From: Escherichia coli
Lineage (GTDB): Bacteria; Pseudomonadota; Gammaproteobacteria; Enterobacterales; Enterobacteriaceae
Strand: one strand, 5' to 3'
DNA length: 64,000 nucleotides
Assembly (NCBI RefSeq): GCF_003334765.1
Contig: NZ_QOWT01000012.1
Position 1 is the first letter of the stretch. Every line of letters starts with the position of its first letter. A program made the position numbers and the translations under genes. Below are positions 3,582 through 30,853 of this stretch, piece after piece. Below the pieces are notes generated by a model, which made no database searches, was not told the origin of the DNA, and worked only from the letters and a program-made list of their open reading frames with translations.

Positions 3582-4925
3582 TTACGCGACGCTTTCTTCT
3601 TTATCTTTAGCGTCAGGCAGTTTTGGCGAAAGGGCGGTGGCCTTGCTGTCGATCCGGGTCACCAGCAGCTGGTCGATGCGGTAGTTATCGATATCCACCA
3701 CTTCAAATTTGTAGCCGGCGAATTTCACCGAATCGGTGCGTTTCGGGATCTTACGCAGCATAAACATCATAAAGCCGCCGATGGTTTCGTAGTTGCCCGA
3801 CTGCGGGAACTCGTCAATATCCAGCACGCGCATGACGTCGTCAATTGGGGTGCCGCCGTCAATCAGCCATGAGTTCTCATCACGGGCGACAATCTGCTCT
3901 TCCAGCCCCTGACCGACTAGATCGCCCATCAGCGTGGTCATCACGTCATTGAGGGTGATGATCCCCACCACCAGCGCGTACTCGTTCATGATCACCGCGA
4001 AGTCTTCACCTGCGGTTTTAAAACTTTCCAACGCCTCTGAAAGGGTTAACGTATCCGGCACAATCAGCGTGTTGCGAATTTGTACGCCGCTGTTCAGTGC
4101 CAGGCTTTGGTTAGCCAGCACGCGGTTCAGCAGGTCTTTAGAATCGACATAGCCGATGATGTGGTCAATATCTTCATTACAGACGAGGAACTTAGAGTGC
4201 GGATGTTCCGCCACCTTATTCTTCAGGCTTTGCTCATCTTCGTGGAGATCAAACCAAATCACGTTTTCACGCGGTGTCATTGACGACGGAACGGTACGGG
4301 ATTCCAGCTCAAAGACGTTTTCAATCAGCTCGTGTTCCTGTTTACGTAACACGCCCGCCAGCGCACCGGCTTCCACTACCGCGTAGATGTCATCAGAAGT
4401 GATGTCATCTTTACGTACCATTGGCAGTTTGAAAATACGGAAGATTATGTTCGCCAGTCCGTTGAAGAACCACACCAGCGGGGTGCAAACGTACAGGCAG
4501 AAGCGCATCGGGTTGATGATACGCAAAGCGACAGCTTCTGGCGCAATCATACCGATGCGTTTCGGGGTTAAATCCGCAAACAGGATAAACATGCCAGTCA
4601 CTAACGAGAAAGAGAGAATAAAGCTCAGTTGCTCAGAGAGCTCTGCCGACATATAGCGGGAGAACAGGCTGTGAAAAGCTGGAGAAAATGCCGCATCACC
4701 GACGATACCGCCGAGAATCGCCACTGCGTTCAGACCGATTTGGACCACGGTAAAGAACATGCCGGGATTTTCCTGCATATTCAGAACGCGTTGGGCATTT
4801 ATATTGCCTTCATCAGCCAGCAGTTTAAGTTTGATTTTGCGTGAGGCGGCAAGTGAGATCTCGGACATCGAGAAGAACGCACTTACAGCGATCAAGCAGA
4901 GTATGACTAAAATACTGTTTAACAT
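3582..4925 (-). CDS. ytfL: Inner membrane CBS/CorC-HlyC family transporter (YtfL/PaeA)
   Basis: 447-aa ORF with hydrophobic N-terminal half and CBS-pair/CorC C-terminal region; matches YtfL. Confidence 0.88.
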   Translation of the reverse strand: MLNSILVILCLIAVSAFFSMSEISLAASRKIKLKLLADEGNINAQRVLNMQENPGMFFTVVQIGLNAVAILGGIVGDAAFSPAFHSLFSRYMSAELSEQLSFILSFSLVTGMFILFADLTPKRIGMIAPEAVALRIINPMRFCLYVCTPLVWFFNGLANIIFRIFKLPMVRKDDITSDDIYAVVEAGALAGVLRKQEHELIENVFELESRTVPSSMTPRENVIWFDLHEDEQSLKNKVAEHPHSKFLVCNEDIDHIIGYVDSKDLLNRVLANQSLALNSGVQIRNTLIVPDTLTLSEALESFKTAGEDFAVIMNEYALVVGIITLNDVMTTLMGDLVGQGLEEQIVARDENSWLIDGGTPIDDVMRVLDIDEFPQSGNYETIGGFMMFMLRKIPKRTDSVKFAGYKFEVVDIDNYRIDQLLVTRIDSKATALSPKLPDAKDKEESVA

Positions 4926-5099
4926 ATCTTATCCGACCTTTCAGGCCAGATCCTCGGAAGGGGAAGTTGATTAATTTGTGTGAAATACAAATTGAAAGCC
5001 GATTCGAAGAAAGTGAACCGGCATTTTCAGTGGCTAGTATAGCGTAAGGTACTGTAAAGTCGCCAGAGGGTTAAAATTCAGACTGCTGATAAATGCAAT

Positions 5100-5205
5100 A
5101 CTGCCTGATGCGCTATGCCAATCAGGCCTACGCAGTCCTTGCAATATATTGAATTTGGACGATTTTGTAGGCCTGGTAAGGCGTTTACGCCGCATCTGGC
5201 ATAAA
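5100..5205. repeat. REP (repetitive extragenic palindromic) elements
   Basis: GCCTGATGCG...ATCAGGCCTAC and GTAGGCCTGG...CGCCGCATC palindromic units typical of E. coli REP. Confidence 0.7.
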
Positions 5206-14127: not shown

Positions 14128-14240
14128 CTATGCCTGATGCCGATTCGTAGGCCGGATAAGGCGCTCGCGCCGCATCCGGCGGTGGTGCGCTGAAGCCTGA
14201 TGCGACGCTTACCGCGTCTTATCATGCCTACTGGGAGCAC
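14128..14240. repeat. REP elements
   Basis: GCCTGATGCCGATTCGTAGGCCGGATAAGGCGCTCGCGCCGCATCCGGC and GCCTGATGCGACGCTTACCGCGTCTTATCATGCCTAC units. Confidence 0.7.
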
Positions 14241-20384: not shown

Positions 20385-20495
20385 TGCGTAGGCCGGATAA
20401 GGCGTTCACGCCGCATCCGGCATTTGAGCATAGTGCCTGATGCGACGCTTGATGCGTCTTATCAGGCCTACAGGTGCACCGCATCCGGCAAACCA
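20385..20495. repeat. REP elements
   Basis: Paired palindromic units TGCGTAGGCCGGATAAGGCGTTCACGCCGCATCCGGCA / GCCTGATGCGACGCTTGATGCGTCTTATCAGGCCTAC. Confidence 0.75.
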
Positions 20496-21162: not shown

Positions 21163-22515
21163 ATGGCACTTGCAATGAAAGTAATCTCTCAAGTTGAAGC
21201 GCAGCGCAAGATTCTGGAAGAAGCAGTTTCCACTGCGCTGGAGTTGGCCTCAGGCAAATCGGACGGTGCGGAAGTTGCCGTCAGCAAGACCACCGGCATT
21301 AGCGTAAGCACGCGTTATGGTGAAGTGGAGAATGTTGAATTCAATAGCGATGGCGCGCTGGGGATCACTGTTTATCACCAGAACCGCAAAGGTAGCGCAT
21401 CATCCACCGATTTAAGCCCGCAGGCCATTGCCCGTACTGTACAGGCGGCGCTGGATATTGCCCGTTATACCTCGCCAGATCCCTGTGCCGGCGTGGCAGA
21501 CAAAGAGCTGCTGGCCTTTGACGCACCAGATCTCGACTTGTTCCACCCTGCGGAAGTTTCCCCGGATGAAGCCATTGAACTGGCGGCCCGCGCAGAACAG
21601 GCGGCATTGCAGGCGGACAAACGCATCACCAATACCGAAGGTGGCAGCTTTAACAGCCACTACGGTGTCAAAGTTTTTGGCAACAGCCACGGCATGTTGC
21701 AGGGTTACTGCTCAACGCGTCATTCGCTCTCCAGCTGTGTAATTGCCGAAGAAAATGGCGATATGGAGCGTGATTACGCCTACACCATTGGTCGTGCGAT
21801 GAGCGATCTGCAAACGCCAGAGTGGGTTGGGGCCGACTGTGCTCGCCGTACTTTATCGCGCCTGTCACCGCGTAAACTCTCCACCATGAAAGCGCCGGTC
21901 ATTTTTGCCAATGAAGTGGCAACCGGGCTTTTTGGCCATCTGGTGGGGGCGATAGCGGGTGGATCGGTTTACCGTAAATCCACCTTCCTGCTGGATTCGC
22001 TGGGTAAACAAATTCTGCCGGACTGGCTGACCATTGAAGAGCATCCGCATCTGCTGAAAGGGCTGGCATCGACGCCATTTGACAGCGAAGGTGTGCGCAC
22101 CGAGCGTCGCGATATTATTAAAGATGGCATCCTGACTCAGTGGCTGCTGACCAGCTACTCGGCGCGGAAACTGGGGCTGAAAAGCACCGGACATGCGGGC
22201 GGTATTCACAACTGGCGGATTGCCGGACAAGGGCTAAGCTTCGAACAAATGCTCAAAGAGATGGGTACCGGGCTGGTGGTGACGGAGCTGATGGGCCAGG
22301 GCGTGAGTGCCATTACCGGTGATTATTCCCGTGGTGCAGCGGGCTTCTGGGTAGAGAATGGCGAAATTCAGTATCCGGTTAGCGAAATCACCATCGCAGG
22401 TAATTTAAAAGATATGTGGCGCAATATTGTCACCGTCGGTAACGATATTGAAACACGCAGTAATATACAGTGTGGTTCTGTGCTGTTGCCGGAGATGAAA
22501 ATCGCCGGGCAGTAA
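21163..22515 (+). CDS. pmbA: Metalloprotease PmbA/TldE
   Basis: 450-aa [25 protein letters not shown]...; matches PmbA. Confidence 0.92.
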
Positions 22516-22694
22516 AAAACTGGCGCGACCTGCCGCGCTATAAACTAAAAAATTACACAAAATCATTCGCACTGCATCGAGACGGAAAGTGAATGAGGGC
22601 CGGGGAGCGTACTCGCAGTACGTGACCCGGGCGAATGAGCGTAGCCGTCGATGAGGCAGTGTGAAGGATGAAGTGTAAATAAAAAAGGAAGTGA

Positions 22695-23084
<390 letters not shown>

Positions 23085-23128
23085 TTCCTCATTTCCCTGT
23101 TGCCTGCACTCAGGTAACAGGGAACTTA

Positions 23129-23593
23129 TCATCGCAAATGATGCACCACCTGATTGCTGCTGCCGCGCCAGATCAGGGAAGGGTCTTTTAAATCCTGCAC
23201 AAATTTGCCGTCGACCAGTACGTTAATCAAATCAACAACCTGCATTTGCGCAGCGTTGAGATCGTCGAGTTTATAGCCTGTCCACACCCAGATGTCTTTA
23301 TCCGGACACTCGGCGCGGATGCGTTTTACCAGTTTCAGAATATCCGGCACGTTTTGCGGATGCAGCGGATCGCCGCCGGAGAGGGAAATCCCCTGGCGTT
23401 TGATACGAGTGTCATTCAGATCGTTAATGATCTGGTCTTCCATTGCTTTGGTAAATGGCTGACCAGAATTTACCCGCCATGTGCTTTTGTTATAGCAACC
23501 GGGGCATTCATGAACACACCCGGAGACAAACAGGGTGCAGCGAGTGCCGGGGCCGTTGACGATGTCGACAGGATAGTACTGATGATAATTCAT
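23129..23593 (-). CDS. nrdG: Anaerobic ribonucleotide reductase activating protein (radical SAM)
   Basis: 154-aa ORF with CxxxCxxC (CVHECPGC) radical-SAM motif. Confidence 0.9.
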   Translation of the reverse strand: MNYHQYYPVDIVNGPGTRCTLFVSGCVHECPGCYNKSTWRVNSGQPFTKAMEDQIINDLNDTRIKRQGISLSGGDPLHPQNVPDILKLVKRIRAECPDKDIWVWTGYKLDDLNAAQMQVVDLINVLVDGKFVQDLKDPSLIWRGSSNQVVHHLR

Positions 23594-30475: not shown

Positions 30476-30659
30476 CCTGTTGTCCCGTAACGTGTTGTTT
30501 AATTATTTGAGGCTAACTTTACCCGTGCATTCAGCAATGGGTAAAGTCTGGTTTATCGTTGGTTTAGTTGCCAGCAGGTATTATATCGCCATAAATGCTA
30601 CGAATATTATTGGATTCTCCTTATTATTTGCGGCGCTTTTTTCACTTACCGGAGGTTAT

Positions 30660-30713
30660 ATGGAACCTGATCCCACGCCTCTCCCTCGACGGAGATTAAA
30701 ACTTTTTCGGTAA
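30660..30713 (+). CDS. mgtL: mgtA leader peptide MgtL (17 aa, proline-rich)
   Basis: ATG at 30660 encodes [21 protein letters not shown] within the long mgtA 5' leader. Confidence 0.75.
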
Positions 30714-30853
30714 GCCCGTCTTTTCACGGCGTTACCGGATGCGTAAGGCCGTGACGTTTTAACGTCCCTGCTCAGCTTTATTACCTTCAGGTAAGGCTTC
30801 GCCACGCCTGAAGACATTTCTGTACTGTTTCAGACAGTGCGGAGGGACTCCTT

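Follow-up and report, generated by a model that had tools for sequence, protein, structure and literature searches.

The spacer between pmbA and cybC in the E. coli DNA examined here (a stretch of 64,000 nucleotides, hereafter the window) carries a 126-nt palindrome, which sequence comparison identifies as a diverged copy of the known ERIC/IRU family. It is very probable (roughly 0.9) that this ERIC/IRU copy inserted into the Escherichia pmbA–cybC spacer, where it would form a co-transcribed hairpin between the two genes and exert a modest effect at the RNA level. The element belongs to the ERIC/IRU family, is multicopy, is present in some strains and absent from others, has a hairpin that is kept by compensatory changes, and is strongly conserved where present. 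An earlier sequence-only reading of this region missed the main point, namely that the palindrome is a copy of a known repeat. The family has been known since 1990–91, and the pmbA–cybC copy is present in K-12. The ERIC/IRU/RU-1 repeat is said to have been described by Sharples and Lloyd in 1990 and by Hulton and co-workers in 1991. Reviews present ERIC/IRU as a 127-bp imperfect palindrome of enterobacteria, class it as a MITE, and date the cataloguing of the K-12 copies to 2006; the catalogue is reportedly that of Wilson and Sharp.

The spacer and the flanking genes contain the following features:

21163–22515, + strand: pmbA (tldE), the upstream gene, with its stop codon 37 nt before the ERIC (ORF list, RefSeq).
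22523–22538, + strand: GC-rich hairpin GCGCGACCTGCCGCGC, outside the ERIC (spacer comparison of 80 Enterobacteriaceae loci).
22553–22678, + strand: ERIC/IRU element, an imperfect palindrome of 126 nt (profile match, paralog alignment, fold).
22553–22578, + strand: left terminal inverted repeat, or outer arm (repeat finder, I1; family consensus structure with compensatory changes).
22600–22631, + strand: central stem-loop, the diverged counterpart of the ERIC core targeted by ERIC1R/ERIC2 (repeat I3, paralog alignment).
22653–22678, + strand: right terminal inverted repeat, or outer arm, purine-rich in the mRNA sense (I1, family alignment A3).
22685–22691 and 22698–22700, + strand: cybC Shine-Dalgarno sequence AAGGAAG and start codon, beginning 7 nt past the ERIC end.
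22698–23084, + strand: cybC (cytochrome b562), the downstream gene, intact in the source strain (ORF list, RefSeq).

The gene names were confirmed by the RefSeq annotation of an identical E. coli sequence (strain L73, 100% over the tested 1.1 kb). The ERIC is thus intergenic, between the co-oriented genes pmbA and cybC. Two − strand open reading frames of 97 aa (22405–22698) and 96 aa (22553–22843) traverse the element; they show no sign of being genes and were treated as mechanical. Open frames within ERICs are noted in reviews.

The palindromic structure of 22553–22678 is far above chance. Folded as RNA, the + strand of the element reaches −63.8 kcal/mol versus −31.6 ± 3.3 kcal/mol in 200 shuffles (z −9.7); the − strand fold is −44.7 kcal/mol (z −5.75). 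The repeat finder returned outer arms of 26 nt each, which are 77% complementary, and an inner pair at 22600–22613 and 22617–22630. All repeats quoted in the sequence-only reading, which had proposed a nested inverted-repeat palindrome between pmbA and cybC, could be located: GCACTGCATCGAG at 22569–22581, TCGATGAGGCAGTG at 22648–22661, GTACTCGCAGTAC at 22609–22621, and CCGGGG and CCCGGG at 22600–22605 and 22626–22631. The palindrome itself therefore stands, while the extent given for it, about 100 nt at 22545–22665, needs correction to 22553–22678 (126 nt), the right arm having been cut short by 13 nt.

Family membership was assessed with an nhmmer profile made of nine ERIC copies from other loci and genera, from which every Escherichia pmbA-locus copy was left out. 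The profile matches 22554–22677 on the + strand with 64.9 bits (E 3.4e-19; model positions 9–130 of 133), and this is the sole ERIC profile match within the 64-kb window. We refer to the orientation with TTACACAAAATCATTC at the left end and GAAGGATGAAGTGTAA at the right end as forward. The central region aligns in register with the family ERICs, and the central stem is preserved via altered bases. By manual base-by-base count on the alignment, the core matches the ERIC1R and ERIC2 primers at only 13/22 and 15/22 positions, and a search of the window with a degenerate ERIC core pattern gave a match count not above chance. The element was probably missed by eye because its core has diverged from the ERIC primer sequences. 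The copy ends in TTACAC and GTGTAA, versus TATACAC and GTGTATA in the paralogs, and its TA target-site duplication is not intact: AT/TACAC...GTGTA/AA here versus TA/TACAC...GTGTA/TA in the paralogs. The lost duplication fits decay following an old insertion and bears on the state of this copy, not on family identity. Likewise, both deviations, the missing intact TA duplication and the low identity in the primer regions, reflect the age of the copy, not its family.

When 5,426 complete E. coli genomes were searched with blastn, full-length diverged paralogs came to light, with 60–80% identity over 93–97% of the query. Five of them were aligned (hsdR–hsdM, queA–acpH, puuR–puuC, rhlB–gppA, and downstream of the T6SS tla1 gene); all of them have the ends TATACACAAAATCATTC...GAAGGATGAAGTGTATA, with an inverted repeat in the centre. 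The paralog family is ERIC/IRU because the queA–acpH copy contains GTGAATCCCCAGGAGCTTACAT.AAGTAAGTGACTGGGGTGAG, the target of primers ERIC1R and ERIC2 (primer sequences from PMC3696847); a Citrobacter copy also has the primer sequences. With the hsdR–hsdM paralog as query, a median of 13 places per genome was found in the 5,426 E. coli genomes (range 3–20). The E. coli queA–acpH ERIC terminates at the acpH start codon. Internal insertions of about 80–100 bp to the right of the core were seen in two ERICs, namely the queA–acpH copy (L004, 1585–1665) and a copy in L037 (~3950–4050). Taken with the family, the pmbA–cybC element is alike in being an imperfect palindrome of about 127 bp with terminal inverted repeats, intergenic in a likely transcription unit, multicopy in enterobacteria, alignable over its full length, variable in presence among strains, and equipped with a hairpin kept by compensatory changes. 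It differs in its 70–80% identity to the E. coli paralogs, in the primer matches of 13/22 and 15/22, and in the TA duplication that is not intact.

The annotation sources consulted were silent on the element. RefSeq/PGAP annotation has nothing at the site, including the K-12 MG1655 copy at 4459349–4459476. The Rfam scan that the sequence-only reading had put forward as a check gave no match at the element, either in the whole window at gathering thresholds or in the region at E ≤ 10, where only chance matches (sobemo_FSE, sR30) appeared. A reader of the sequence alone sees an unexplained 126-nt hairpin because RefSeq/PGAP leave ERICs unannotated and Rfam has no ERIC model. Above gathering score, the window holds other Rfam matches at 30645–30760, 48340–48534, 1513–1635, 4987–5044, 5124–5166, and 54507–54588; the families are the magnesium riboswitch (30645), Ysr276 antisense RNA, ES239, STnc450, ES036 (CssrF), and one tRNA.

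Two other classes of small palindromic repeat were compared with the element. REP/BIME units are about 35–40 nt long and rich in GC, frequently occur in clusters, and owe their mobility to a REP-associated transposase; they can stabilise upstream mRNA as barriers to 3' exonucleases. Correia/NEMIS elements of Neisseria are miniature inverted repeats with TA ends that are co-transcribed as long hairpins and processed by endoribonucleases, with RNase III cleavage at the inverted repeats; they can also carry promoters and IHF sites. The pmbA–cybC ERIC is like the latter in being a TA-ended miniature inverted repeat, but the sequence families are unrelated. REP/BIME units and the pmbA–cybC element are both intergenic palindromic repeats of E. 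coli, and REP-like repeats do occur in the same spacer at three other loci (L023, L051, and L055). The element is nevertheless 126 nt long, has no sequence similarity to REP/BIME, and matches the ERIC profile over its full length at E 3.4e-19; naRNA4, the REP-derived Rfam model, finds four other sites in the window and none here. A REP/BIME-type or other non-ERIC palindromic repeat is accordingly an explanation with next to no chance of being right, and the statement of the sequence-only reading that the palindrome is not a canonical REP unit holds. The four naRNA4 (CssrE) matches, which are REP/BIME-derived, lie at 14150–14228, 20391–20468, 47335–47410, and 47431–47506. The 20391 match lies in the mpl–yjgA interval; its apparent K-12 counterpart is the Term-seq 3' end at 4457270, annotated as antisense to yjgA.

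The hairpin of the ERIC family was examined in an alignment of 16 copies in common orientation (A3), of which seven are Escherichia orthologs, four are paralogs, and five come from other genera. The consensus structure comprises 34 pairs, with standard pairing in 94.9% of the cells. With the 3' partners slid by 1–3 columns as a control, pairing falls to 32–47% of cells. Two-sided changes were found at 13 pairs, versus 1–6 in the slid controls. The palindrome is thus actively maintained, and the pairing test is compatible with maintenance at the RNA and the DNA level alike. E. coli-type ERICs have the more stable fold in the forward sense, also where transcription runs through them the other way, as at hsdR–hsdM, and only the Kosakonia and Phytobacter copies have the opposite fold bias. 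The + strand fold advantage was considered as a local adaptation to the mRNA sense and rejected, because the reverse-transcribed hsdR–hsdM copy shows the same bias; it is a trait of the E. coli-type subfamily.

At the pmbA–cybC site, the element is present at ≥90% identity in 3,885 of the 5,426 complete E. coli genomes (~72%), K-12 included, and missing from the remaining ~28%, which have only paralogs of 60–80% identity. Junction queries distinguished three alleles:

Filled, with the cybC start intact: ~3,530 genomes.
Empty: ~1,540 genomes.
Filled, with the K-12-type 26-bp deletion: ~360 genomes.

The ~360 genomes of the last group fail across the cybC junction and probably share the K-12-type deletion. 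This deletion was seen in K-12 (L002, 781–795) and EC359 (L008, 4477–4490) just downstream of the ERIC, with the junction AAGGAA/CTATTCTTGC; it corresponds to 22691–22716 of the window and removes the cybC Shine-Dalgarno sequence and ATG. The K-12 cybC is a pseudogene because of the loss of these two signals.

The history of the site was traced in a locus scan with PmbA as query and one genome per species, which yielded 80 Enterobacteriaceae loci. The block AATAATAAAAAAGGAAGTGAGCA-ATG is kept in nearly all of them. The GC hairpin at 22523–22538 is, to judge from these spacers, an ancestral feature of the pmbA–cybC spacer. A GC hairpin after pmbA is kept across many Enterobacteriaceae, and in several genera (L071, L074, L086, L088) it is followed by a T-run and resembles an intrinsic terminator. 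In this set of 80 loci, which lacks E. albertii, E. fergusonii, and E. marmotae, a forward-oriented element after the GC hairpin occurs in Escherichia only. Five species-representative genomes are filled, at 94.5–97% identity: E. whittamii, two named E. coli, and two Escherichia sp. The empty E. coli allele, which occurs naturally in strain CUVET20-1573 among others, consists of the hairpin and AAATCTTCATAATAAAAAAGG, and the spacers of Citrobacter amalonaticus and Citrobacter sp. R56 consist of the hairpin and ATAAACTTCAATAATAAAAAGG. The empty arrangement is taken as ancestral because the empty E. coli allele resembles these Citrobacter spacers. Spacer comparison thus places the insertion of the ERIC in the Escherichia lineage, between the older GC hairpin and the cybC ribosome-binding site. 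The left flank of the filled allele differs from the empty allele. A clean insertion or excision was considered and rejected: the filled and empty alleles each retain a different portion of the ancestral spacer.

In several other genera, the pmbA stop codon is immediately followed by a classical ERIC that points the other way (TAA/TACCCGTCATACTTC...), and these spacers lack the GC hairpin. Such reverse copies were found in Citrobacter sp., S. enterica diarizonae, E. asburiae, Kosakonia, and Phytobacter (L020, L029, L037, L058, L062, and L063, at ~3852–3980). Their orientation is unambiguous, as illustrated by nhmmer strand scores of 124.6 versus 22.3 bits in L020. The pmbA–cybC spacer was struck by ERIC at least twice independently, because the copies in other genera have the opposite orientation. 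Relics consisting of the two terminal repeats alone remain in several Citrobacter species (L014, L018, L019, L024, and L043). Other repeats downstream of pmbA were observed in L023, L025, L051, and L055 (C. sedlakii, C. amalonaticus S646, and Superficieibacter); these are REP-like GC-rich palindromes, for example GCCGGATAAGACGC...CATCCGGC, and L023 had no cybC match. Small repeats in general seem prone to settle in the spacer downstream of pmbA. Partial ERIC-like matches (model ~31–124) were also detected downstream of cybC in L074 (4825–5120), L009 (5611–5700), L022 (4922–5009), and L026 (6030–6130), with three tandem partial ERIC copies in 'Enterobacter pulveris' (L074).

The sequence-only reading had offered three roles for the palindrome: a terminator, an sRNA, or an RNase target. 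An intrinsic (Rho-independent) terminator of pmbA that halts transcription before cybC would suit a very stable hairpin shortly past a stop codon, and the pmbA–cybC spacer of several other genera does possess a real hairpin with a T-run. The element hairpin, however, is followed by AAUAAAAAAGG and has no U-tract. The terminator scan found no + strand terminator-like site near the element and scored only the GC hairpin on the − strand; this E. coli hairpin has no + strand T-run and is terminator-like solely on the − strand, where no gene reads towards it. In the curated K-12 Term-seq table (Adams et al., 2021; PMC7815308), the interval bounded by 4457270 and 4463010 is free of 3' ends. For the + strand, Adams et al. 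give a Rho termination region at 4460186, past cybC and antisense to nrdG. Because there is no 3' end at the element and the Rho region is beyond cybC, + strand transcription appears to run through cybC in K-12. The cybC Shine-Dalgarno sequence begins 7 nt past the hairpin with no promoter between, and a scan of 22300–23300 revealed no sigma-70-like promoter. A terminator role is, on this evidence, very unlikely.

It is equally improbable that the element encodes a small RNA, whether as a gene in its own right or as a stable product processed out of the pmbA 3' UTR. The strong RNA structure, its evolutionary conservation with compensatory changes, and the much better fold of the + strand would agree with such an RNA. 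Against it are the lack of a promoter-like site, a terminator, and an Rfam match even at E ≤ 10, the lack of a dominant 3' end in K-12, and the occurrence of the family at ~13 unrelated intergenic sites per genome. Because it is multicopy and absent from this site in 28% of E. coli, the element is to be regarded as a repeat and not as a dedicated RNA gene. It is neither a terminator nor a separate RNA gene.

The spacer in many other genera is as short as 28–40 nt among the 80 Enterobacteriaceae loci, which speaks for normal expression of cybC from pmbA transcripts. We infer that the ERIC is co-transcribed in the pmbA–cybC mRNA or the cybC leader; the indirect transcript data are from K-12, where cybC is a pseudogene. 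Within such a transcript the element would form a long hairpin by itself: the ERIC folds alone, and the fold predicted around the cybC Shine-Dalgarno sequence is the same in the filled and the empty allele. The hairpin would then act as an RNA-level element between pmbA and cybC, either as a passive barrier to 3'-to-5' exonucleases or as a site of RNase E or RNase III processing that makes the stability of the pmbA segment independent of that of the cybC segment. A co-transcribed hairpin affecting mRNA stability or processing is the most likely role by analogy with Yersinia. Any effect should be modest and dispensable, because more than one quarter of E. coli strains are without the element.

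The closest parallel is offered by the ERICs of Yersinia enterocolitica, which likewise lie between two co-oriented, presumably co-transcribed genes. De Gregorio and co-workers reportedly found in 2005 that the ERICs which destabilise mRNA in Yersinia are adjacent to stop codons or span them, and that their 3' inverted repeat presents an AU-rich site to RNase E. The E. coli copy differs in its position 37 nt past the stop codon, its purine-rich 3' arm, and, apparently, its opposite orientation. The reverse copies in other genera are more Yersinia-like in that they abut the pmbA stop and have an AU-rich 3' arm, GAAUUAUUUAGGGUA. According to reviews, Yersinia ERICs have an orientation-dependent effect on the stability of co-transcribed mRNA via RNase E, and this is the sole experimentally supported function of the ERIC family. 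Of the roles suggested by the sequence-only reading, an RNase target is consequently the only one that fits published ERIC data, and it may apply to the E. coli copy by analogy. The literature search returned nothing relevant on ERIC at cybC or on the pmbA–cybC intergenic region.

Where the element is present, it is highly conserved. Three further Escherichia genomes (L009, L011, and L012) differ from the window at 22–24% of the four-fold degenerate sites within the 300 nt of pmbA and cybC that border the spacer, and at 4 of 128 ERIC positions (3.1%; Fisher p ~3e-6 to 8e-6). The ERIC of the filled allele is thus about seven-fold more conserved than the adjacent four-fold sites. The contrast is weaker in two closer genomes, L010 and L013 (11–15% at four-fold sites versus 3–5% in the ERIC, p 0.02–0.03). 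The short non-ERIC parts of the spacer and the adjacent gene ends also diverge less than average, and the low ERIC divergence could partly reflect constraint on the whole spacer or very short recombination tracts. Among 14 orthologous copies, 13 sites are variable; of the stem changes, five preserve the pair, mostly through G·U in the + sense, and four disrupt it. This pattern is weakly biased towards pair-keeping changes, too weakly to indicate selection at the RNA level. In Escherichia sp. MOD1-EC7003 (L010, 3889–4016), three linked substitutions (GTGAAT to GTGCAT and ATGAGC to ATGCAC) produce a perfect 6-bp helix where an internal segment is otherwise poorly paired; selection for pairing or a template switch within the quasi-palindrome could have produced them.

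The copy may be a selectively neutral relic without effect on expression, a reading which we regard as a real possibility at odds clearly short of even and which traces the conservation to infrequent local mutation, to recombination in short tracts, or to correction templated by the hairpin. Its dispensability in the ~28% of E. coli without the element, the decayed target-site duplication, and stem substitutions that are only weakly structure-preserving all agree with a relic, as do the below-average divergence of the neighbouring spacer and adjacent gene ends and the multi-base helix-perfecting change in L010, which fits a quasi-palindrome template switch. The seven-fold lower divergence than at four-fold sites within 300 nt, repeated in three independent species comparisons, speaks against it. 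Gene conversion between copies cannot explain the conservation, the paralogs being too diverged (70–80% identity), and the published Yersinia data indicate that ERICs can alter mRNA levels. The ERIC might instead have been recruited as an RNA element, kept by selection, that sets cybC expression or pmbA mRNA stability; this is rather unlikely. If it were true, the filled/empty polymorphism would be a functional regulatory polymorphism, and the independent reverse insertions of other genera would count as alternative solutions for the pmbA–cybC junction.

The co-transcribed ERIC hairpin of modest effect remains our preferred reading, and the identification has consequences of its own. It removes the pmbA–cybC palindrome from the candidates for new RNAs and closes an annotation gap. 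To our knowledge, the effect of an ERIC hairpin on expression has so far been tested in Yersinia only. With its natural filled and empty alleles, the conservation of the filled allele, and the independent reverse insertions, the pmbA–cybC spacer would be a convenient test case for ERIC effects on expression in E. coli.
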